A DNA stretch of 64,000 nt, from NCBI GenBank assembly GCA_051362555.1, contig CM120646.1, positions 7,998,001 to 8,062,000 of the forward strand, given 5' to 3'. Under the pieces are notes generated by a model, which was not told the origin of the DNA, searched no databases, and saw only the letters and a list, made by a program, of their open reading frames with translations. Made by a program: the position numbers and the translations under genes. This DNA is from Lingula anatina. Lineage: Eukaryota > Animalia > Brachiopoda. Shown here piece after piece: positions 1 to 61,430 of the stretch. Positions within the stretch are counted from its first letter, which is position 1. Each line of letters starts with the position of its first letter.

Positions 1-370
1 AACATTTATATTTCTGATTTCAATATTGGAATATTCAGGCACAATACAATTTCAATGAGTGATATGCGTTTTTATACATTTTGGATAACATTTTAATGGT
101 TGTAATTCACAGTAAAGCAACTGATTATTCATACCCGCAGAGGATATATCTAACAAACCATTCTGAACAAGATAAAATAAGTATTTTGTCATTTATTGAA
201 CATTTCATCGGTAAGGACTTAGGTCTCTGTTCAGTATTTAATACATGTCGATTGTCACCAGTGGGGCGTTACTTTTTCAAGCAAGACTATGAATAAGAAA
301 ACGCAATCCTTTTGTATTGCTGCTATTTCGGGTAAATGGTTTTATGTTCAATTAATTTTGTTTTAGGAAA

Positions 371-2066
371 ATGGCAGCTGAAATCGTCCAGCTTAACGAC
401 GACACGGAGGATTCCGATGCTGTGATGAAATTCCTTAATAAAAAAGACGGCGTGTCACGCTTTTTAGATGCTATGAAAAGACACTCACAGCGACAAGATG
501 AAAAGATTGAGAGTCTTAAAAGACTCAGTCGTTCAAACGAAGAATATTTAGCAAAAAATGACAGCGAAATTAATGCGCTCAAACAGGAAATCGAACAAGA
601 AACGGATCAAAAAGAAAATTATATGCAACAAGTACAGGAGGAAAAATCAAAATCTGAAGATCTTCGTGAAAAATTAATGGATGCCGAAAGTAAGAAATCA
701 ACACTTGAGGCAACCACAGAGTCCCAGAGGAAAACTATTGAGAACTATAAAACAGAACTAACCGATTGTAAAAGGCAAATCAAGGAAAAGGAAACCGAGC
801 TTCAACAACTAAATAATTCCCATCAAATAACAATAAAGACAAAAGAAGAAGAAAATGCGTCCATGTTGCAAGCTCTAGAGTCTTCAAGGAGAGATGTACA
901 AACCACAACAGACGAGCTGGAAAAAGAGAAGAATGAAAACGCCGAACTGCGCTCAGGCCTTCGGCAGCGTGACTCCGACTTCTCTGCACTGAAGCAAAAT
1001 TGGGAACGGGAGGTTTGTGAGAAAGAGGTACTCGCTGCGTCTCTCAAAGATGTACAACTCACTTTAAAAGATCTTAAAATGAAAAACGAAGACGACATGC
1101 AAAGAAATGGATATGAGATGACGGCATTAAACGAAAAACTAGAGCGGACCACGAATGAAAGAGACGAATCTCTTGATAGGCAGAAGGAACTGAAAGAAAC
1201 CATGAAAAATCTGGATGAAACACTAACGAAAACCTCGACAGAGAAGGTTGGACTAGAAAATGCCCTTAAAACAGAGATAGAAGATAAAGCACGTCTTCGA
1301 GTGTGTCTTGAAGAGGAACGGAAAGACTTTGAGATCAAAATACAACGATCTAGAAACGAAGAGAACATTCTTTTGCAAAATTGCGAAAAACAAAAGAATG
1401 ACATCAGCGCTCTTCAAAAGAAATTGGACGATGCAAAATCTGAAAAAGAGAAACTTTCTAAAGAACTTTGTTTGACGAAAGAAAGTCATTCCATCGCCAT
1501 GAAAGAAGAGCGGGACGCAACGGCTGCGAAATTACAAGAACTACAAAAAAAGAGCGAAGAGGAAAAAAGAGACGCCGAAGCAAGAATGCAATGCAAAATC
1601 GTTGACCTGGAATACCGTAATGCGGAGCTCGATGATTCTCTGAGTCGCGAACAGGCAAGGGTCAAGAAGAGAGATGAGACACTGTCCACAGCGGAAAAAG
1701 CCGTTCGAGAATGTATACAGCTGTCCGAGCAAGGCATAAAGGAGAGGAAGGAGAGGAAGGAGGTGCTGATAAAGATCAAGGACAAAATGGAGTTGTATAC
1801 AAAACGGGCATATGCAGATCAAGCGGGCAGTAGCAGCAAGCGATTTAGTTTACTGGAACAGCCAATCAGAAAAGGTAAGGCATAATTATTTTAAAAACAT
1901 TCAACCTTGAATGAATGAAGTAAACGCAAATTACGATATATTAATAAATGAAGAATTAATATAAGTCAAAGCTGTTTACATTTATTACAAACGTGTCAGG
2001 ATTACACTCCACGATCACAACAACAGCAGCAACAACGTTAACAACAATACTACTGATACTTCGCAC

Positions 2067-2109
<43 letters not shown>

Positions 2110-2903
2110 TATTATTATCGTGATTCTTTAACTTTGATTTGATCCCAAGTCTTTTCTGTGCTTATTTTTATTACAGTTAAGACACAGCGAGAAATTTACT
2201 GTGACAATTTGCGCGCTGGATGGACCGCCATGATTCGAGACCTGGACCTTCTTCTCGATACAGAGTCCAACGAACTCCTAGATTCTCTCTTTCAAAACAG
2301 AGTCATAGAATCAGCCGAGTACAACAAGATCCGCAGCCTCCCCAAACGAACGGGGGAACGAAGTCGTGAGTTTCTGCAGCTCCTTATGGGGAAGAAGCCG
2401 GATTCTATTACAAAATTCATAGAGCTGCTGAAAGAAGACGAACATGCTCGTCATTTAGCTGATATCGTGGAAGGTCCTTCTGCTTTTAGTTCCGGTAAGC
2501 CCCCGACACACACGCACACAAACACATCGAGCGTGCGCAATATTTGCAAAGATCGAGCTAATATGCAACGATGATAGCAATTACATTGGTTTTCCTGTAT
2601 TTGGAGACAAAGAAATCCATCTTTATTGTTTTATTTAGACAATATACTAGTACATATATTTAATCCCCATTTACCTGACCTGAACTGCCTGCACTACTAA
2701 TGTTATGCAGTGTATTATAAATATATATATAAAAACGATAATACTTTTAATTATAGTAACAAAAACACATAATATAATAAAAATAACATTTGGAACTTTG
2801 GTTTTCAGGAGCGCCGTCCTCTGAAGATTTAGCATCATCTGGCAGTGACAGTGATGTCAGCACAGAGAGGAAGGCTGTCCAGGTTTCTGAACCAATGTCG
2901 TAA
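371..2903 (+). CDS. Long coiled-coil protein with C-terminal CARD (death-fold) domain; coding exons 371-1874, 2177-2494, 2809-2903 (~638 aa)
   Basis: 504-aa E/K/Q/L heptad-rich ORF ends at AAA G|gtaagg (1874). A phase-1 acceptor ttacag| (2177) opens an exon resembling a CARD (LLDSLFQNRVI..EYNKI...RSREFLQLL..K...ITKFIELLKE...HLADIV). Donor G|gtaagc (2494), acceptor tttcag| (2809), TAA at 2901-2903; all phases are consistent. Confidence 0.8.
2068..2108. repeat. (TAA)n microsatellite
   Basis: Direct reading. Confidence 0.95.
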
Positions 2904-5111: not shown

Positions 5112-6186
5112 TTAGGTTACTTTCCCGTAAAGATTTGCCCCTTCCATGGTGTCGCCTGTATTGAACAGCAATTGATTTATAACCATTTCATTTTTGCTTA
5201 TAATACCGTTTCTGTCAAAATCCATTTCAGAGAAAACTTCTGCAGAAAATTTAGCGTGGAAAATCTTGAGAAAATTGGCATACTCTTTTTCATCAAGAGT
5301 GTCATCCCCGTTTTCATCCACCAGCTCAAAGAACGTAAGATCCCAATTGTCTTCTATGTCCAGACTATGACGCTCAACCATTTTCGCAATGATTTCGGCT
5401 TTGTTTTTGATCACATCGTTTGCGCTAAAGCCTACTAAGTTTTCGTCATGCATAACCACTTTCCACCACTTGTCCCATATGGCCTGCAAATAAGCTCTGA
5501 TTTTCTCTTCCTTCTCGGCAGACTTCGTTATTGCACCTACTCTTGCTGCCGTCATATTTACATATTCGTTTTTATCCATCCTTCCATCTCCGTTTAGGTC
5601 CATGATGCCTATGAAATATCTCCATTTGGCAGTCCAAATATCACTTGGTGGCTCTTCTTGTACCTGTAAGAGAAACAGGCATTCACCATCTTATGATTAA
5701 GGTTCTATCAATTTTCACCGTTATTAATGTCCCCATACCATGCTTTTCGTCTGTTATAATTAAAGTAATAAAATAATATGCTTTTATTGTGTTTATGTGT
5801 CTTGCTTGTCGGTGCTCAGAACATCAGTTTATTTCCTGCGGCTTTCTCACGTATGAGACGGTGTTATAGTGTGCAGTTCTGCAGTTAGCAGGACTGTTTT
5901 ATGGATCTTAGTATTTGTTATTGAATTAACCTGAACTGCTAACACTGACCTTACAATTCAACATTCGTTTCGCCAAATTGGTTGTTTTTTGAAACGCCAA
6001 ACAAGAAAAATGATTAATAAGATTTTTTGTCATGCCTTATCCGTGAAATATTACATTACATAAAGAAAAGCTTTGGTAGGTCAGCGCAGGTAATTTTGAT
6101 ACCTTTTTATCCCGTATAACCAGTGTGGAACCAACGCCACTCGTCAACATGACAACGAAAACGGTTATCAATAGACTGCATAACAT
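5112..6186 (-). CDS. Sarcoplasmic calcium-binding protein (SCP)-like EF-hand protein with signal peptide; exons 6103-6186, 5112-5663
   Basis: Exon 1 is MLCSLLITVFVVMLTSGVGSTLVIRDKK|gtatc. A phase-0 acceptor cttacag| gives VQEEPPSDIWTAKWRYFIGIMDLNGDGRMDKNEY. Three canonical EF loops (DLNGDGRMDKNE, DENGDDTLDEKE, DFDRNGIISKNE) with a degenerate second site, as in the SCP/photoprotein fold; ends LYGKVT. Confidence 0.85.
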
Positions 6187-6656
6187 CTTGGTTGGGTGCA
6201 GGTATTCTAACAGCGGTTATATTCCAAGACCTAAAAGACATCATTTTAAACCTTCGTTATGGTCACTTACAAAGCCATCTCACATTCTCCATTCAATTTA
6301 ATTAATTTTTACTAAGTAGAAAGATATGCAACTTGTCAGGGAGTGAGTATGATGTCTAACGTCTCAGAAAATGCGTAGAATGTTTATTTGTTTACTTTAA
6401 ATAACTCAATAAATAGCTTGCGGCTACTTTCGTGGTTTTAAGTAATTTAAAAACCTTCCTTACCTCTTTTAGTGCAGGTCATTATTTTTAGTGTTTTTTT
6501 TTTTTTTTTTTACAATTTAGCCATTCATAAATTCGTCAAATCTATAACATCCATTATTAGCAAGACGATATGGTGACAGGGCAAGATTAAACGCTTTGCA
6601 GAAAAAAACACGGCCAACTGCACTCTCATAGAAAGTAAATTCTCAAAAATGTCGAT

Positions 6657-7380
6657 AGTAGAAGTGGGCAACTTTGGCTTACTCGATTTTTGGATTTCTG
6701 AGTACCTTATAGCTTACAATAGATTGTGTAAACAATATTTTTGGATTTCTGAGTACCTTATAGCTTACAATAGAGTGTGTCAACAATAAAGACATCATTT
6801 CTTTTGTATTTTTGGGCAACTTCGACTTACAATAGAGTGTGTCAACAATAAAGACAGCATTTCTTTTGTTTTATTGGCAACTACGACTTACAATAGTGTG
6901 TGTAAACAGTGACGCTTACTCGCAGTTTGGAATTCTGACCAACTTATAGCTTACAATAGCCTTTGATCGGACAAAGAGCGACCAGCTAACATTCTGCTTA
7001 CTTAACAATAATGAATGGCGATATTTGTTTATTGACAAGGTAGTTTTATTTACAGAAGGGTTTACAATCACATGTCCATCACCAGAATATATGCTACGCA
7101 TTTAGACTGTGGGTTATATTTTATAAATAGCAATATTCAGGAAGTGGAAGAAAATAAATCAACTTATACAACAGATTATTTACTATTTTCTCTGAACTGG
7201 TATCTTGAGAGGAATAGCATATCGGCGATGGAAAGTTAACGGCGGGTGTTGCTCTCCCTTTTGATAGTAATGTAAAAGCGCCTTGCATATTGGATCATTC
7301 TCGATAAGGTTATTATTGTAAATAAAAGGGTCAAGGGATTTGTTCCCATATTTGCAATTTTCCGATTCACTATCGTCCCT
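6657..7380. repeat. Left terminal inverted repeat (724 bp)
   Basis: Reverse complement of 9358-10081; about 3 substitutions noticed by eye. Confidence 0.95.
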
Positions 7381-8703
7381 CTCTGTAGCCGACTCGTTGG
7401 AAGTTGCACCGCTTTCCAACTCGCTGTCCTCTGACTCTGTGTTTGACATTTCGGTTTGCTCCGATTCCCCAGTATTAGCTAATTCTATGCTGTCAGACAC
7501 ATCGGAATCGGTAGAGTATTCACTGTCAGGATTCGCTCTATGGCTGCCAGGCATAGATCGACCTTTATAAGTTAACGGGGACTCTTCATATTCTGAATCC
7601 GACACATACCGTTGTAATAGGGGAGTTCCCTTTCCTGTCTGTTTAGTTTTCGGTCTAAAATTATATCTCTTTGATGGAACAGCGTAGGGCTTAAAACGCG
7701 TTCGCTTATGCACGGGTTCTCTTGGTGTTTTATCAAACAGCTTTCTTTTAGGTCCCGCCATGGGACTGTCGACTCCACTGGTAATGGTGGGCGGTCTTTG
7801 CGGTGAACCTACAGTCCTATATGGCGGAGGGAGTGCTGAGTGTTGTGTAGGAGTGGTCTTCATATACACTGTTTCAGCCACCATAGGGTTATGGAACTGC
7901 CCTTCTTGTGTTTTTTGTCGTTTCCAGTATGACTGTTTCTCGAGGGACAGTTCGTCATTCAAATCAACCTTTTCGTCCAAGGTAAGGTCATCTCTTTTCC
8001 ACAACTTGCGTTGGTCTGCTTCTATTTTATCAGTTATTTTGGTAAACGGTTGCGCCTTATGTTTCTCCTCTTGTAAATACTTTACAGTCTCTGATTGGTA
8101 CTCATCGTCGTTGTTTTCCTCGGGAAATATACCAACGCGTAGACGACAGTCGTCTGGAGTGTCCTGTTTTAGATCGATGAAGAGGTAGCCATGAGGAGGA
8201 GATGTTGCTTGTTTAAAAACTCGAAGGAAATCTTTTACATCACCGGGATACATCTGCTGGGCTAGTGTTCTGACCTGCAATGTGTCCCTTGGGTTTTTAA
8301 AGAGGACGAGATAATGGCAGTTCAAGGAGATGGTTCTCGCTTCCTTCTCTCTGGGAAAAAGGTTTTGGGTAATAAGGATGACGCTAACATTGCAATGATG
8401 GGAGACTTTGGTAAATAAGTCACGTATTCTGCTATCAACCGCTGCTTCGGCAAATAGGTCGTCAAATACTATGAGATTGTTCACATTAGGATCAAAGAAA
8501 TCGTCATCTTGGATATTGGAAGGAATGCCTTGGTGAAATGTAATAAAACCCTTTGACTCGACCAGCATGACTTCATATAAATGTTGCCACACATCGTAAC
8601 ACCAAATTATTCTTTGTGGGCGTGGTGAAATCATTGATTGGGCGTGTGCAATCAATCGTTTCACGAAAACCGATTTCCCACTCCCCGTCGGACCAGTCAC
8701 CAT
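7183..8703 (-). CDS. Polinton/adintovirus-type A32-like (FtsK-HerA superfamily) packaging ATPase with long C-terminal extension
   Basis: Walker A GPTGSGKS, Walker B LIVFDD, SHH.NVSVILITQNLF and RTISLNCHYLVLFKNPRD motifs; intronless. About 310 aa of C-terminal extension; the stop codon lies inside the left TIR. Confidence 0.9.
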   Translation of the reverse strand: MVTGPTGSGKSVFVKRLIAHAQSMISPRPQRIIWCYDVWQHLYEVMLVESKGFITFHQGIPSNIQDDDFFDPNVNNLIVFDDLFAEAAVDSRIRDLFTKVSHHCNVSVILITQNLFPREKEARTISLNCHYLVLFKNPRDTLQVRTLAQQMYPGDVKDFLRVFKQATSPPHGYLFIDLKQDTPDDCRLRVGIFPEENNDDEYQSETVKYLQEEKHKAQPFTKITDKIEADQRKLWKRDDLTLDEKVDLNDELSLEKQSYWKRQKTQEGQFHNPMVAETVYMKTTPTQHSALPPPYRTVGSPQRPPTITSGVDSPMAGPKRKLFDKTPREPVHKRTRFKPYAVPSKRYNFRPKTKQTGKGTPLLQRYVSDSEYEESPLTYKGRSMPGSHRANPDSEYSTDSDVSDSIELANTGESEQTEMSNTESEDSELESGATSNESATERDDSESENCKYGNKSLDPFIYNNNLIENDPICKALLHYYQKGEQHPPLTFHRRYAIPLKIPVQRK

Positions 8704-8739
8704 GGCAGTAAATGGGGATATGAGTGGTCCACACTCACT

Positions 8740-8847
8740 TCAAGCCTGCAGATTAAGCTGAGTTTTCGCCTGGTGTACACTCATTACGTGTCTATCCAAG
8801 TTGTCCTTTCTGGAGAAGGTTTTTGCGCACTCTGTACACTTGAGCAT
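8740..8847 (-). CDS. 35-aa C2H2 zinc finger ORF, in frame with the ATPase ORF (separated by one TGA)
   Basis: MLKCTECAKTFSRKDNLDRHVMSVHQAKTQLNLQA* matches C-x2-C-x3-F-x5-L-x2-H-x4-H. The TGA at 8742-8740 is 13 codons upstream of the ATPase ATG. Too short for the supplied ORF track. Confidence 0.8.
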   Translation of the reverse strand: MLKCTECAKTFSRKDNLDRHVMSVHQAKTQLNLQA

Positions 8848-8898
8848 CTTTTGAAAGAATGAGAAGGGAGGGTGAGGAGTAAGCTATTTATATACACC

Positions 8899-9250
8899 CC
8901 TCCTCCTCCTCCTCCTCCCTAACTACTCCGAAGGTGTACACCCCTCTACTCCTCCTCCTCATTTTCTTCTTCTCTACACCTCCTGACTTAATCTTCCTCC
9001 TCCTCCTCATCTTCTTGGAAGGAAGGAAAGTGTAGGTAGGACGGATGAGGAGGAGGAGGGGGAAATATGTAGGGAGGAGCAAGAACACCCACCTCCTCCT
9101 CCTCCTCATTTTCTTCTTCTCTACACCTCCTGACTTAATCTTCCTCCTCCTCCTCATCTTCTTGGAAGGAAGGAAAGTGGAGGTAGGACGGAGGAGGAGG
9201 AGGAGGGGGAAATATGTAGGGAGGAGCAAGAACACCCTCCTCCTCATCCT
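8899..9250. repeat. Two ~147-bp tandem direct repeats built of (CCT)n and (GGA)n tracts inside the element
   Basis: ATTTTCTTCTTCTCTACACC at 8961 and 9108; near-identical units. Confidence 0.9.
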
Positions 9251-9357
9251 CTTCCCTACACCTCTAAATAAACAACCCAATAATGCACTGGAACAAACTA
9301 GAGTGCGAGCGCACTTTTACCTATAAGATGAGACGAGACTGAAAATCAAAACAGACA

Positions 9358-10081
9358 AGGGACGATAGTGAATCGGAAAATTGCAAATATGGGAACAAAT
9401 CCCTTGACCCTTTTATTTACAATAATAACCTTATCGAGAATGATCCGATATGCAAGGCGCTTTTACATTACTATCAAAAGGGAGAGCAACACACGCCGTT
9501 AACTTTCCATCGCCGATATGCTATTCCTCTCAAGATACCAGTTCAGAGAAAATAGTAAATAATCTGTTGTATAAGTTGATTTATTTTCTTCCACTTCCTG
9601 AATATTGCTATTTATAAAATATAACCCACAGTCTAAATGCGTAGCATATATTCTGGTGATGGACATGTGATTGTAAACCCTTCTGTAAATAAAACTACCT
9701 TGTCAATAAACAAATATCGCCATTCATTATTGTTAAGTAAGCAGAATGTTAGCTGGTCGCTCTTTGTCCGATCAAAGGCTATTGTAAGCTATAAGTTGGT
9801 CAGAATTCCAAACTGCGAGTAAGCGTCACTGTTTACACACACTATTGTAAGTCGTAGTTGCCAATAAAACAAAAGAAATGCTGTCTTTATTGTTGACACA
9901 CTCTATTGTAAGTCGAAGTTGTCCAAAAATACAAAAGAAATGATGTCTTTATTGTTGACACACTCTATTGTAAGCTATAAGGTACTCAGAAATCCAAAAA
10001 TATTGTTTACACAATCTATTGTAAGCTATAAGGTACTCAGAAATCCAAAAATCGAGTAAGCCAAAGTTGCCCACTTCTACT
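9358..10081. repeat. Right terminal inverted repeat (724 bp)
   Basis: Reverse complement of 6657-7380; explains the identical 61-aa ORFs at 6916-7101 and 9637-9822. Confidence 0.95.
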
Positions 10082-11612
10082 GTCGATACCAGGTATTGTG
10101 AAACGATGTACTTCAGGTTGAGGACAAAATGTGGAGGTAAAATTAACGTTCATCTCGTTATATCTTTTAGCGCAGTCTGATTTAGAATTAATAACATGCG
10201 AATATTATCCAGAAGGGTTGTTATTTTTGACATTTTCGTTACTTAAATAGGCTAAAACCTACGTTACTGGATACAAAAATTACCCATAGTAGCAAGGCAA
10301 AAATGTTAATTTTTTCAGTTATTTATGCAAAAAAGCCAGATATATTACCTTCTGTCACCAGGGATTCAGGAAATGTAGAATTCGCAAAAATATGTTTAAC
10401 TTCATATTTAATTTTCTGTTTTCTTCTTATGGACCTATTTATTGAGAATGAGTGTTGTTCTTTCTCAAATCCCCATTAAAACATTCTTGGCATCATTCTC
10501 ATGGAAATTGATCGCTTTAGTAATGACGGGGTTTCAAACTTGTTGCGTTCCTGCAATATCGTCCGTCCCAACACTCGAAACTTCATCATCCACAGTGGAG
10601 TTATGAGACAGTGTATAGCAAACCCCCTGTGGTTCAACCGAAGGGTAAAGAAGGTCATTTACATTTGGACCCAGAGATCTTCACTCACCAAAGACGGGGC
10701 CGGGGAAGGTGCCACCTGTCTCACATTTGGGACAGAGTTATAGTGTGCAGTTCTATAACGAGTAGCACTGTTTCACATTAGTATTTACCGGGTAAGTACA
10801 TAACTTTTCTCCACAAACATAAAGAAGAAAAAAGCGATTTACCTTGGCTGTTCCAAACAATCTTATGTATATTCTACCGACTCCGTGATCAGCAAAGGAA
10901 TAAGAGAAAACTGCGCAATACTTGTTATATGTTGTAAAAGCTATCCCATCCCATGGTGGTAATTAACATGATAAAGACGTCAGGTGATGATTAGACTTTC
11001 CGTGTTGTTCGATTTTTGTAACAAATCTACATCCACCTTGACATCCTTATACTGTAACATGACTATGTGTGTGATAATACACCCAGTTCGAAATATTTGA
11101 TAAGGAACATCATTTGAACAGATTTTATGATTTTTGAGTACGAAAGGAAAACTGGTCAGTTAAATCTGGTCACAAATCCGTATACATCTATAGAAAAGAA
11201 AGAGTGCTAATACTGCTTTTTTTAAAAGTCTCAGTCCATATTTCTTTGAAATTGTGGTCAGCACTGTGGTTAAATAGCACCAAGTCTACACATGCACAGG
11301 GGCGGATCCAGGATTATTTGAAGGGAGGGGGGGGGCCGACCCTTCTGCCCTCCCCTTGACGTGGCGTTCAAGGCCCGGAAACGGAAACTTTTGGTATTTT
11401 AGAGGGCGAACGGTGCCATTTTTTACGGTTTAGAACTATGATTCAGTTAGTCAAAATTCAAATGGTATGATTTTTTTCAGAAATCGAAGGCCACTGCATG
11501 CATATGTTTCTGCCTGGCTGCGTATGTCTGTTTGTAGAACGTATAAAATATGCCACTAAATTTAAACATTACAAAATGAACATAAACACACACACTCGAG
11601 CACACGCACATT

Positions 11613-57186: not shown

Positions 57187-59319
57187 TCATGTCCTGTGCA
57201 GATCACCACTAAGGATTCGTTTGAAAGTCCGCTTAAATTGTGCATTGGCGAATGCATAGCAAAAAGGATTGATTGGGCTGTTCATGTAGCAGAACCAGTA
57301 CGAAATCTCGTACAGCCGTATATGCACACAATCATAGCAAAAACCTAAAATAATAACTATAACGTGGTATGGAGTCCAGAACAATACAAATGCCCCCAAT
57401 ATTAGGGATATGGTTCTGAGGGCTTTTCTGGCTCGATTTTCAGACTTCGACTTGTTTTTACCTTGAGCTTTTCCTTTTTCTTTTCGTTTTTGGTTTTTAC
57501 GTCTAAAATATGTTGTTATGTCGTGCCACTGTTGAGTAACCCTCTCCCTTGCTGATTTATGTTCATGGTTTCCGCTTGGTGGTTTTATTGTTTTAATTAC
57601 CGGTTTGCCTTTCGATTTACTATTCACGGAAACTTGCATGCAAACTTTATCTTTATCGCCGTTGCAACCAACCATATTGGCGGCTCTGTGTTCAGTCTCC
57701 TTCGCCTTAAAGGACTGTCTTCGTTTCCAAATTGGAGACGGAGGCTCGTCATTGGACTGAGCAAGCTTATCAATGTGGCGGGTTTCCACAACGAGTTTCA
57801 CATCCTCTCCAGAGGCAAACGATTGGAAGCTTTCTTGATCGATGAAACGAATGCCGTGACCTCGTTTTGGTGTTTCGCCACTGGAACCGCTTGTATCATG
57901 AGATCCAGCAGTTTGCGTCGACGACTCGTTGTCAAGGAGACTAGAAGGTGTTTGTGACACCGGAGTTGGGGTAGTCAGGTATTGCTCCCCCTTAGGTGTT
58001 GTCAAATGGTCGTCTGTCTTTTTATTTTTATGCCCATGTGCGTGATCCTTCCCGTGGTGATGATGATGGTGTCGATGGTGATGGTGATGGTGGTGTTGTT
58101 TAGGTTTATTCACTGGAGTTCCAGCGCTGTCCCCGTCTAGGCTGTTATAAGCCGGCGGAGGATGAGGGGCCGATTGACTGCTTGAGTCCTCCACGTCTGA
58201 TGGGTAGGCAGTGCTGGAAGATCCCTCCTCCTCTTCCACTGCTGCTGTGGCTTTCTTATTCTTTAAGGGACTTATTGTTTCCTTAACTTCCTTGACAGAC
58301 GCCTTCTTTGTTTGAGATATCCCAATCCCTATGTTCGTCATGGTTTGTCCAGCCATAGAAACGAGTGACGTCATCTTTTTCTGTTTTGCGGCTGATTTTC
58401 TGTGTAGATCCAAGGCCACTTTGTAGATCCCTGCATACAGGATTATCATCACGACCAGAGTTATCCAATAGTACCCTATAACCAAGATGGTATTAAACAT
58501 TGGGCTGGACATGAATTGGACCCAACACTCTTGAGCAGGGACAGTTCTTAGTCCAACAAAGTACTGCCATCCTATTATAGACGTGTAGAATATAAGAATG
58601 GGTATGACCCAGGTGACGGACACCATCACATTCACCTTGTGTTCTGTTCGCCAGTTGCGGTACTTTGCTGGTATTTTGACAGAACAAAAACGGTCCACAG
58701 TGATAAAGAACACGGTGTACTGCGAGGCGAGGCAGCTGGTGTAGTCCAAGGAAAGCCACAAATCACACACAGTAGGCCCCAGCGGCCACTTGGCGTCCAA
58801 CAATAAATACATCGTATACAAAGGCATGGAGAACAGGCCGATCAGTAGATCCGATACGGCGAGACTGGCAATGAAATAGTTTGATGGTTGACGGATCTGA
58901 CGGTCAAGATAAAATGACAGCAGCACGAGGGAGTTTCCCAGAACAGTTACAATGCTGACAATACCGCCAAATATTGCCAATAGAACTGTTAACCACATAG
59001 GATGACGGAGTGTCCATTCAAATGTAGTTGTCTCGTTCGATGTATAATTGAACGTTAGATTTTCAGCAAGTCCTAGTATTTCCAAGCAAAGAGACAAGTC
59101 GAATGTCCCATTGCAGTAATATTCTGTCAAGGCCCTTTCTTCGGTTAGGTTGTCATTAACGTACTCTGGGAGCCGAGGGATCGGGGAGTCATCATTAAAC
59201 GTGTACGGCGCGAGTTCATTCCTTTCAGCAGGACTCATGGCTGCCACAGATGGTACTAAGGGAACCCCAAAAGTGAACGGTGTTGTTAGCGGCAACGTTG
59301 TCGGCGTTGTGACGTTCAT
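57187..59319 (-). CDS. Muscarinic acetylcholine receptor, invertebrate B-type (class A GPCR), single coding exon
   Basis: 7 TM segments; GN, NYFIASLAVSDLLIG, CDLWLSLDY, SQYTVFFITVDRFCSVKIPAKYRNWRT (B-type/GAR-2-like), ENRARKALRTI, WTPYH (His where A-type receptors have Asn), NSPINPFCY. A 5'UTR acceptor lies near 59892. Confidence 0.93.
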   Translation of the reverse strand: MNVTTPTTLPLTTPFTFGVPLVPSVAAMSPAERNELAPYTFNDDSPIPRLPEYVNDNLTEERALTEYYCNGTFDLSLCLEILGLAENLTFNYTSNETTTFEWTLRHPMWLTVLLAIFGGIVSIVTVLGNSLVLLSFYLDRQIRQPSNYFIASLAVSDLLIGLFSMPLYTMYLLLDAKWPLGPTVCDLWLSLDYTSCLASQYTVFFITVDRFCSVKIPAKYRNWRTEHKVNVMVSVTWVIPILIFYTSIIGWQYFVGLRTVPAQECWVQFMSSPMFNTILVIGYYWITLVVMIILYAGIYKVALDLHRKSAAKQKKMTSLVSMAGQTMTNIGIGISQTKKASVKEVKETISPLKNKKATAAVEEEEGSSSTAYPSDVEDSSSQSAPHPPPAYNSLDGDSAGTPVNKPKQHHHHHHHRHHHHHHGKDHAHGHKNKKTDDHLTTPKGEQYLTTPTPVSQTPSSLLDNESSTQTAGSHDTSGSSGETPKRGHGIRFIDQESFQSFASGEDVKLVVETRHIDKLAQSNDEPPSPIWKRRQSFKAKETEHRAANMVGCNGDKDKVCMQVSVNSKSKGKPVIKTIKPPSGNHEHKSARERVTQQWHDITTYFRRKNQKRKEKGKAQGKNKSKSENRARKALRTISLILGAFVLFWTPYHVIVIILGFCYDCVHIRLYEISYWFCYMNSPINPFCYAFANAQFKRTFKRILSGDLHRT

Positions 59320-61430
59320 CGTAGACCGTGGTGTGATTTTGAATCGAAGACGAACCGAGTGGGTGATGAAAAGGATAGGAGCTCAGAATTAGATTTCAAT
59401 TATTTTGGAGATCTTCTCTTGCCAGGTCGACCCATCCTTCCGCCGGGCTGTTTACACTAGGAACTACGGCCTTTCGCAGGAGATCCCTCAGGATTATTGA
59501 AAATATAGTCTTCTCATTGGCATCGTAATATCCCATACAAATTCCTTATTATCCTCTTCAATTTAACTGTCTCACTCTATGAATAGCGATTATGGCCTTA
59601 AGCTCTCCCGTGTCAACTTGAATAGCTTTGAAATGCCAACGCTTGACACTTCAATAATACGGTTCAAATCCGAATGATTTTCTAAAACAGTAATTCGCGG
59701 TCTCATATCCGCGCCGAATAACAGGAGAGCTCGTGGGTTTTATATCGGTACAATGCAATTCAAGTCCCTGTTCAATTTATAGCTCACGTGGAACCATCAC
59801 GGACTTCTGGTAAAAGATTCCGCGACGATGATAGCTGCTTTTATCCCATCAAATATCTCAATCCACTTGCCAATATTTCCATCACTGCTTCCTGAAACAA
59901 TAAGACAGCAAATTAGGCAAAGAACTCCTAAGTTGGATACCTATCGCTAAGAAAATAGCTTATTCATGGATTAAATTGTTGAACCATTGGAAACCTGACC
60001 TGGTGAGTGTGGCGTGAAAGGTCATCCAAATAAAAGCGAGAAGGCATTATTTGAAACTGGAAACAGAATCTCATCATGCAATGTTAAGAAAAGCTGTTGT
60101 CTATCAGATCTCTTCATCAGGACTCGTCCCTTAACGGTGACCGCACTGCGGGTCATTTACTCGTTTGAATCTAAACCAGTCTCGACGTGCGACTACTTAA
60201 TAAAACATCAGTAGCACACACGCACAGTCAATTTCAAAAAGCCTTAAAGGGCACGAGAGGGTCTTTTTGTCAGACGTAAAGCCGCTAAAGTGGACAGTTA
60301 ACATATTTAGTTTGAACTTGAAATATTATATTTCCCAGTACAAAAGGCACAGAAACCACTTGGCTTCACGTAACACCAAAGGAAAGGCTTTATTATTAAA
60401 TCAACTGTTAATTTTTTTTGACATATGATACACGAGTCATTAGCTAATGGGTGGCACAATACCAAAGCGCTGGCCTGACATTTAGACTGATGTCCCTAAT
60501 GTTCGCTTAATGTGCAAGGCATTCCATTTGTGCCGTTATAGGATAATCAACTTTGTATTTCAATAAATGCAATGTATTCATGACGCGGTTTATATATAAA
60601 TAAATTAATTTATGAAACGTTGTAGATTAGTATTTCAGACAATTAGTTATACAATACATTTAGTTCTATGCAAAATTGGTAAGCAAGAGAAAATATAATG
60701 TAGATTTAGAGTTGAAAATATCTATTACAAGTAAAGTAAGTTATTCGATTTTCTGTAAAACTCCTTTGAAATAACCTAGTGGTGGATCCAGGTATCAGGG
60801 CACAGGAAATAAAATCAGGATTGCACTGGTAGATTAATGAGGCTCCCATCGTTTGTTTGGTCACGAGGGCAGCCAGTCGATAAATGTGAGGCCATTTTTT
60901 ACCAAGTTGTGCTGCATCTTCTGCCCTTTCTGCCTGCTTTTCAGTACAAATTAAATCACAGGGGTCCATACTTTCGATCGAAATTCAATTCCTTCTCTTT
61001 AACATGCTTTAGCCAAAGTTAAGAGGACATGGAAGTCCTAAATGCTTGCGCGGAGTGTGTGAATATTTGGTTCCCGGCGCGTAAAATGGAATAATTCGGT
61101 TTACTGAAGCAGATTAATTCGGAGGTGGCGTTTCGAAAACACTTTCGTATTAAATTTGAAGAATTGGTTCTGCGCCCGGGGACTTCGAAACTAAATGAAT
61201 ATTTCATCGGCGCCTTAAGTGGATCTTTTACTGTGCCAAGAGATGGAAATGGGTTTGAACACCTCTTCATGGGTGCAAAGACTGGGAAAGCGCCTGGCTC
61301 CTCCCTAACACCCAAGTCTCTGTAGCAATAGGTGCTCAGGATGTGCCGAAGCACACCTTCGAAATTTCCGTCTGCATGTTCTGGTTCTAGTTGTCGCCAG
61401 AGTAACTACAATGCTTATTATTGACAAATG

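Follow-up and report, generated by a model that had tools for sequence, protein, structure and literature searches.

A 3425-bp element inserted in the genome of the brachiopod Lingula anatina carries the termini of a Polinton and, as its only recognizable Polinton gene, a broken gene for a packaging ATPase. The element occupies positions 6657-10081 of a 64,000-nucleotide stretch (assembly GCA_051362555.1, contig CM120646.1, positions 7,998,001 to 8,062,000 of the forward strand), to which we refer as the window. In our judgement the chances are even that this element is a recently inserted and apparently single copy, with a broken gene, of a Polinton-derived family present in multiple copies, and that the family members are likely small, helper-dependent elements that would steer their own DNA into the capsids of full-size Polintons. 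The satellite idea suits the parent family and its 4-5-kb relatives better than it suits the copy in the window.

Like autonomous Polintons/Mavericks (polintoviruses, adintoviruses), the element has an A32/FtsK-type packaging ATPase, broken in this copy, and long inverted repeats. AGT..ACT ends and a 6-bp target-site duplication are typical of Polintons, and the element has both. Sequence comparison of the window places the insertion between two perfect copies of GTCGAT (6651-6656 and 10082-10087), a match of flanking 6-mers expected by chance with a probability of 3.6e-4 from base composition. The terminal inverted repeats are exactly 724 bp long with three mismatches (99.6% identity), the left repeat (6657-7380) starting with AGTAG and the right repeat (9358-10081) ending with CTACT. 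Each arm contains five copies of CTTACAATAG (10 matches versus 0.13 expected); in the left arm these fall one apiece in five subterminal units of 51-63 bp (6686-6973, plus strand). Between the repeats lie most of the ATPase gene, a set of (GAG)n/(CTC)n arrays (8890-9259) and a unique spacer (9260-9357). The arrays include a 147-bp tandem duplication (8938-9084 and 9085-9231), and GAG-array doublets reach 76 per kb in this region versus 0.26 in the remainder of the window.

When the open reading frames (ORFs) of full-size Polinton loci were compared with the whole window, the ATPase was the sole match; this comparison found no protein-primed DNA polymerase B (pPolB), RVE integrase, major or minor capsid protein, or protease. 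Also, no second copy of the element exists within the 64 kb. A preliminary description of this DNA had reported the GTCGAT duplication, the AGTAG..CTACT ends and 724-bp repeats with about three differences, all of which are confirmed. Its view that the element is Polinton-derived, non-autonomous and recently inserted is likewise supported, and an integrase acting in trans stands as the most likely route of insertion.

The same description had seen one long intact ORF. A 506-codon open frame is indeed present (8703-7183, minus strand), but it covers the 3′ portion of a gene in which zinc finger, ATPase and helix are fused. Upstream of it on the same strand is a 35-codon C2H2 zinc finger frame (8743-8847, Met at 8847; Pfam zf-C2H2, E 1.1e-6) with the recognition helix RKDNLDR, separated from the ATPase by a premature in-frame stop (8740-8742) that is peculiar to the window copy. 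The A32/FtsK-type packaging ATPase domain (8113-8736), with its Walker A (8694-8671) and Walker B (8475-8458) motifs, is followed by a helical segment (7894-8112) that weakly resembles the helical domain which homologs carry on the C-terminal side of their ATPase, and by a C-terminal tail (7186-7893) that is basic and proline-rich, then acidic. The left repeat takes in the final 65 codons of the long ORF together with its stop, and the right repeat holds a duplicate of them. Ahead of the finger Met are a TATA-like box (8894-8884) and an initiator-like motif (8862-8857), which make up a putative promoter.

The predicted structure of the ATPase (mean predicted local distance difference test score 77.8) best matches viral A32 and IVa2 proteins, with STIV B204 as the best match among solved structures; both fold and motifs are those of a packaging ATPase of the A32/IVa2 type. 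In this model the first predicted strand starts upstream of the Met at 8703, which sits midway along it. Among the best 120 of 228 homologs (cnidarian where named), the ATPase is preceded by a finger on the same chain in 65 and extended C-terminally by at least 60 residues in 116, and 61 show both features. Because the upstream finger is in frame, homologs carry the same fusion and Met 8703 lies inside the first strand, finger-ATPase-helix-tail is, as judged from sequence, the original gene order, and the 506-codon frame is on these grounds not a whole gene in the window copy. Since its first reading frame stops behind the finger, the window copy likely makes no full motor.

The window protein is 37-54% identical to the homologs listed and 41-54% identical to full-size-type loci. 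Its helical segment scores 7.7 bits against the fused helical domain of the homologs (E 0.066), a value reached by none of 500 shuffled sequences. No relative of the tail was found: residues 202-506 have no match among 1.84 billion representatives, and residues 195-506 none in the Atlas. Neither the protein nor its alignment finds a relative in IMG/VR, and the 60 matches listed from a sequence search of solved structures are mostly zinc fingers, with no packaging ATPase among them. In two RNA runs (X12 and X15) no read fell on 8300-9850, with about 6% of each run read and no control gene.

Ten DNA runs from four studies, and no RNA run among those listed, contain part of the stretch; the contigs of four DNA runs were compared, and two were re-examined alongside the two RNA runs. 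In run X1, which may be the source of the window DNA, both contigs spanning the junctions of the element are identical to the window, and the summed depth of the ATPase is about 22 times that of these two contigs. The window letter in the premature stop codon has a depth of 47.9 out of 713.7 in X1, where the junction contigs have 42-49, and of 0 out of 642.6 and 0 out of 73.7 in runs X5 and X6. The stop allele is thus at single-copy level in X1, and almost no other family copy carries it. Same-size copies at other sites, for which the preliminary description had suggested a search, were not seen in these short contigs; by contig depth the window copy is apparently single. The Lingula parent family comprises roughly 20 copies and shows a signal of purifying selection. 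Specifically, 10 of the 13 ATPase differences listed within the family are silent (0.22 expected; P 3e-5), compared with one of six in the finger and linker and four of seven in the tail; these counts take only the best-supported differences of two tables, beyond which lie 745 and 118 others. The comparison of ATPase copies put forward in that description supports selection on the packaging ATPase of the family.

The other family copies part from the window copy where its right repeat begins on the inner side, at 9357-9359; from this point the window copy is an inverted copy of its own left end. Five contigs in X1 and two in X5 end loosely at 9359, running into other sequence. The depth of the ORF tail, which would be doubled if the family shared the duplication, is 0.8-0.9 times that of the ATPase, and the distal repeat stands at 1.5-2.1 times. 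Further loose ends lie within the right repeat at 9584, 9695 and 9736, and those at 9584 and 9695 suggest that the natural repeat is shorter than 724 bp. Copying of the left end, we infer, lengthened the right arm. The simplest setting for this is replication preceding integration, although a repair event following insertion may also account for it. The arms differ by 0.4%, and therefore the copying event was recent. Since the other copies diverge at this edge, ATPase-only 3.4-kb copies do not look like a family, and an apparently single copy with a right repeat seemingly extended from its left end does not represent a same-size satellite family.

Two other features of these contigs concern the spacer and the insertion site. 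In two runs the spacer (9260-9357) exceeds the ATPase in summed contig depth by a factor of 2.5-4.6; one piece of it (9288-9339) stands far above the ATPase in depth in both X1 and X5 and may occur in elements without an ATPase. The element is nested in another repeat: 6067-6583 and 10087-10240 have high summed depth and many loose ends. A joint of 6579 to 10087 is present in runs X1, X5 and X6, and may come from paralogues of this surrounding repeat rather than from an empty site of the locus itself.

Relatives of the ATPase in a metagenome collection indicate what the parent family may look like. Among the best 80 of 422 stretches, 67 have a stand-alone ATPase and 13 have fusions. Many stand-alone loci are ordered polB, ATPase, two small genes, integrase, capsid genes and protease; one locus (L030) with a flagged finger pattern has this full-size gene order and was counted with them. 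In contrast, polB, integrase, capsid and protease genes have no match in the available DNA of the 13 fusion loci or of two further loci, L081 and L082; among these only L002, L011, L021, L081 and L082 have long flanks. An AGTAGT end is found about 2.5-2.8 kb upstream of the ATPase in L003 and L021, and an ACTACT end about 1 kb past the gene in L011 and L002. The named homolog proteins point to corals as likely hosts of these loci. A 22-nt terminal pattern from the window element had no match in the collection.

One of these small elements is complete. L081 (3163-8546, 5384 bp) has the duplication ACTATG, near-identical arms and three ORFs, with no polymerase, integrase or capsid gene, and would be 4.3 kb long without a 1.09-kb insert in one arm. 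Its bin is labelled bacterial, yet collagen-like ORFs lie near it, and its finger is frameshifted relative to its ATPase. In full-size elements, the first gene after the ATPase has a homolog in one of the small ORFs of L081, and the second gene after the ATPase is homologous to the fused helix. Comparison gave no support for regarding the second small gene of L081 as the C-terminal half of that helical gene in its stand-alone form. Ratios of nonsynonymous to synonymous change (dN/dS) between L081 and L003/L021 are 0.05-0.07 for the ATPase and 0.17-0.19 and 0.11 for the small genes, at a synonymous divergence of at least 0.9. Four close copies (L005, L007, L010 and L023) give 0.90-1.20, the decay expected after insertion. 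Small relatives that lack polymerase, integrase and capsid genes and yet keep a motor under selection likely parasitise Polinton viruses, or are pieces of them.

The window element shares with these small elements the finger, the array, the position of the promoter and a stop codon adjacent to the end. In L081-type elements two divergent small genes come next, and the other end follows within about 3 kb; these genes have no counterpart in the window copy in the comparison with ORFs of full-size loci. In the ATPase tree, fusions other than the window and P0087 cluster together (82/91), with the non-fusion P0001 within; a single clade of all fusions is neither rejected nor demonstrated (p-AU, from the approximately unbiased test, 0.147; 41 of 104 rows). 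A full Polinton gene set is present in another locus, L083, whose bin is labelled bacterial.

The finger and the array appear to correspond. The helix RKDNLDR of the window fits the pattern R-x-D-N-L-x-R, and the (GAG)n arrays lie just upstream of the gene. Serine at helix position +3 would favour GTG, a preference for which no paper was found in the literature searched. Across 16 fusion loci, the window included, Asn at +3 is paired with (GAG)n in 10, and Ser is paired with (GTG)n in two (L011 and L021), which come from a subfamily that is otherwise Asn with GAG. No array was found in any of 45 full-size-type loci with at least 400 nt of upstream sequence. RSDNLVR and RRDNLNR are among the GAG modules of the pattern R-x-D-N-L-x-R tabulated in PMC5260015. 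Because the loci are related, no weight is given to a Fisher test relating finger to array type (p 0.028, with 7 and 2 loci). The finger is predicted to bind the (GAG)n array of its own element, as a lead and not as proof.

These observations can be assembled into a mechanism. The Lingula parent would be small like its relatives, supplying its own motor and taking polymerase, integrase and capsids from a full-size Polinton. The zinc finger would bind the array of the element, and this binding would serve packaging rather than autoregulation alone; autoregulation of the promoter is an equally open role for the finger. In the history of the window copy, synthesis would have broken away from its template at 9357-9359 and made an inverted copy of the opposite end, with loss of the genes that relatives have on the far side of the array, and helper polymerase and integrase would have copied and inserted the element. 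The full reading frame would have been lost before or after the far-side genes.

Several results weigh against a small, helper-dependent parent with a finger-guided motor. The size of the Lingula parent is inferred from relatives, the Lingula contigs being short, and summed contig depth is a rough guide and not a copy number. The window letter in the stop codon is also present in run X10, at a depth of 23.9 out of 366.8. The window ATPase is a long branch that is not firmly placed with the other fusions, and a profile of the stand-alone helical gene misses the window helical segment, 476 of 500 shuffled sequences scoring as high. The finger-array match amounts to one independent contrast, and four of the 16 loci are uninformative or misfit: L001 and L010 are too short, L041 has no array and L018 has another repeat. 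Finally, a helper sharing ends with the small elements was not found, as none of 19 contigs with the L081 repeat is among the 38 capsid-gene contigs of the bin (G001) in which that repeat was followed.

Bin G001 is a partial, 12-Mb bin labelled bacterial, with 52 ATPase matches, two contigs being of the fusion type. Among 13 other ATPase loci of the bin, nine stand beside polB and have no finger or array, a tenth lacks upstream sequence, and the remaining three (L086-L088) are of a further kind, with a different Cys/His motif and no core-gene match in up to 6 kb. In this bin the L081 repeat flanks four gene sets or more. The first is the ATPase type (L081 and L082). The second is represented by a complete 4851-bp element (L122:1098-5948, contig C535) with L081-type ends and the duplication TTCGTT, whose ORFs comprise an adenain-like protease (its Pfam match, E 0.004, misses the cut-off), one resembling an exonuclease and small ones; short GAG and GTG runs separate the two main ORFs. 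In the third, partial elements (L126, L129, L130, L141 and L142) have the same ends beside Cys-rich and acidic ORFs without a Pfam match; the Cys-rich ORF also follows a truncated ATPase in L082. The fourth is a broken piece resembling the N-terminal part of pPolB (L140:2662-4184, contig C662) beside the same kind of end. A partial relative of L122 is present as L127. L123-L125 of G001 (contigs C587, C690 and C744) have another ATPase type, with an N-terminal Cys/His motif and an acidic neighbouring ORF, and no core-gene match in up to 6 kb.

A linear parent has two ends, and therefore a satellite set or a segmented genome must be considered. The parent might be one segment of a multipartite Polinton-like genome, made of 4-5-kb pieces with shared ends and different genes, in which the finger-ATPase reads a common signal and the window holds a damaged ATPase segment. 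We regard this possibility as tentative and rather unlikely. The gene sets inside the L081 repeat and the short GAG and GTG runs of L122 speak for it, as do the deep spacer and the loose ends at 9584, 9695 and 9736 in Lingula. However, no capsid, integrase or intact polymerase gene was found beside such ends: none of the 38 capsid contigs has them, nor does any of five integrase, polymerase or capsid contigs examined (L133-L137). (A minor-capsid query matched nothing in G001 and counts as no test.) Furthermore, the shared-end evidence comes from relatives in a 12-Mb bin, and a swarm of unrelated satellites with common ends would look alike. The broadest form of the proposal, also improbable in our estimation, is a segmented Polinton-derived virus distributed from corals to brachiopods, with integrating 4-5-kb segments that split the gene set and a finger and array that change together (Asn-GAG, Ser-GTG), the window element being a copy-back product of the ATPase segment.

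With similarly low probability, the parent may be an ordinary full-size Polinton with a fused ATPase at one end. The window element would then be a plain deletion derivative, and the selection would reflect the autonomous parent. Deletion derivatives are the usual source of non-autonomous DNA transposons, according to PMC5381603, the far side of the Lingula family is unread in short contigs, and the window protein is only 37-54% identical to the homologs listed and has no firm place in the tree. Such a parent accords poorly with the 13 fusion loci, L081 and L082, none of which has a core-gene match in the DNA available (only five with long flanks), and with the full-size loci, whose ATPase is stand-alone and without an array. 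It would also leave the window element sharing its finger, array, promoter position and end-adjacent stop with small elements.

The preliminary description had instead suggested that the ATPase-only 3.4-kb form is itself active, as a satellite or defective-interfering element that hinders helper packaging through an intact motor, which we now consider very improbable: the perfect target duplication, the 99.6% identical arms, the Walker A, Walker B and downstream motifs retained in the frame from 8703, and re-initiation after the 35-codon frame, conceivable in principle, would fit it, but the stop removes the finger and leaves a Met in the middle of the first predicted strand, the stop allele is at single-copy depth in X1 and absent from X5 and X6, and the other copies differ at 9359.

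A small, helper-dependent family, the reading that we favour, has partial parallels among known systems. Polintons/Mavericks are 15-20 kb long (PMC4028283), whereas the window element is 3.4 kb and its ATPase belongs to a fusion with a C2H2 finger and a helical domain. Nine capsid-less Polintons described in PMC4028283 also lost the ATPase and protease; in the window family the ATPase is retained. Non-autonomous deletion derivatives of DNA transposons and butterfly Polintons without polB (bioRxiv 10.1101/2025.02.07.637071) similarly keep their ends, have lost core genes and depend on mobility in trans, and the repeats of the butterfly elements can contain coding sequence. The butterfly elements were selected at 12 kb or more and for lack of polB only, whereas the relatives here are 4-5 kb long with their remaining genes under purifying selection. 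Transpovirons are small linear elements with inverted repeats and no capsid genes that travel in the particles of another virus (PMC5499653). They keep a polymerase-helicase and have lost the packaging module, whereas the elements described here keep a packaging ATPase and have no replication gene; no ORF in the window element is large enough for the polymerase-SF1 helicase gene of transpovirons.

Phage satellites such as phage-inducible chromosomal islands (PICIs) and P4 use a protein of their own to direct helper capsids to satellite DNA. The likeness would hold if the protein of the element steers helper capsids; the differences are the animal host, the Polinton origin and the lack of an integrase of its own. 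In copy-back defective genomes, or in panhandle repair of linear replicons, one end is replaced by an inverted copy of the other. The window element resembles such genomes in its sharp junction inside coding sequence, but it is integrated, apparently as one copy, and gives no sign of amplification or interference. Non-autonomous Polintons are represented in Repbase. We found no description of a 3-5-kb Polinton derivative that keeps its ATPase in the literature searched, outside which lie Repbase and most subscription papers; none appears in the covered portions of PMC4028283, PMC8502044, PMC11131425, PMC5499653, PMC6431247, PMC11071308, PMC5381603, PMC12166617, PMC5260015, PMC5859405 and bioRxiv 10.1101/2025.02.07.637071.

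A packaging motor is of no obvious use to an element that lacks a capsid gene; lasting selection on the motor therefore implies that the element's DNA enters particles or that the element acts on a virus that makes them. This bears on whether animal Polintons form virions, and particle sequencing gains a marker that is small and can be counted. The finger-array match points to a candidate packaging signal. A survey of coral polintoviruses set 10 kb, two capsid genes and the ATPase as its requirements (PMC11131425), and because of them it could not detect these small elements. The window copy itself is of lesser weight, as a damaged member that points to a small, selected, finger-guided offshoot of Polintons.

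Other genes in the window include an intronless 163-codon EF-hand protein (Pfam EF-hand; 5112-5603, minus strand) about 1 kb from the insertion. A long charged frame resembling a coiled coil (356-1885, plus strand) is followed by a frame at 2143-2574 (plus strand) that looks by eye like a CARD-type death fold. An intronless muscarinic acetylcholine receptor gene lies at 57187-59382 (minus strand), of which 57190-59319 is 100% identical to a Lingula anatina receptor record.

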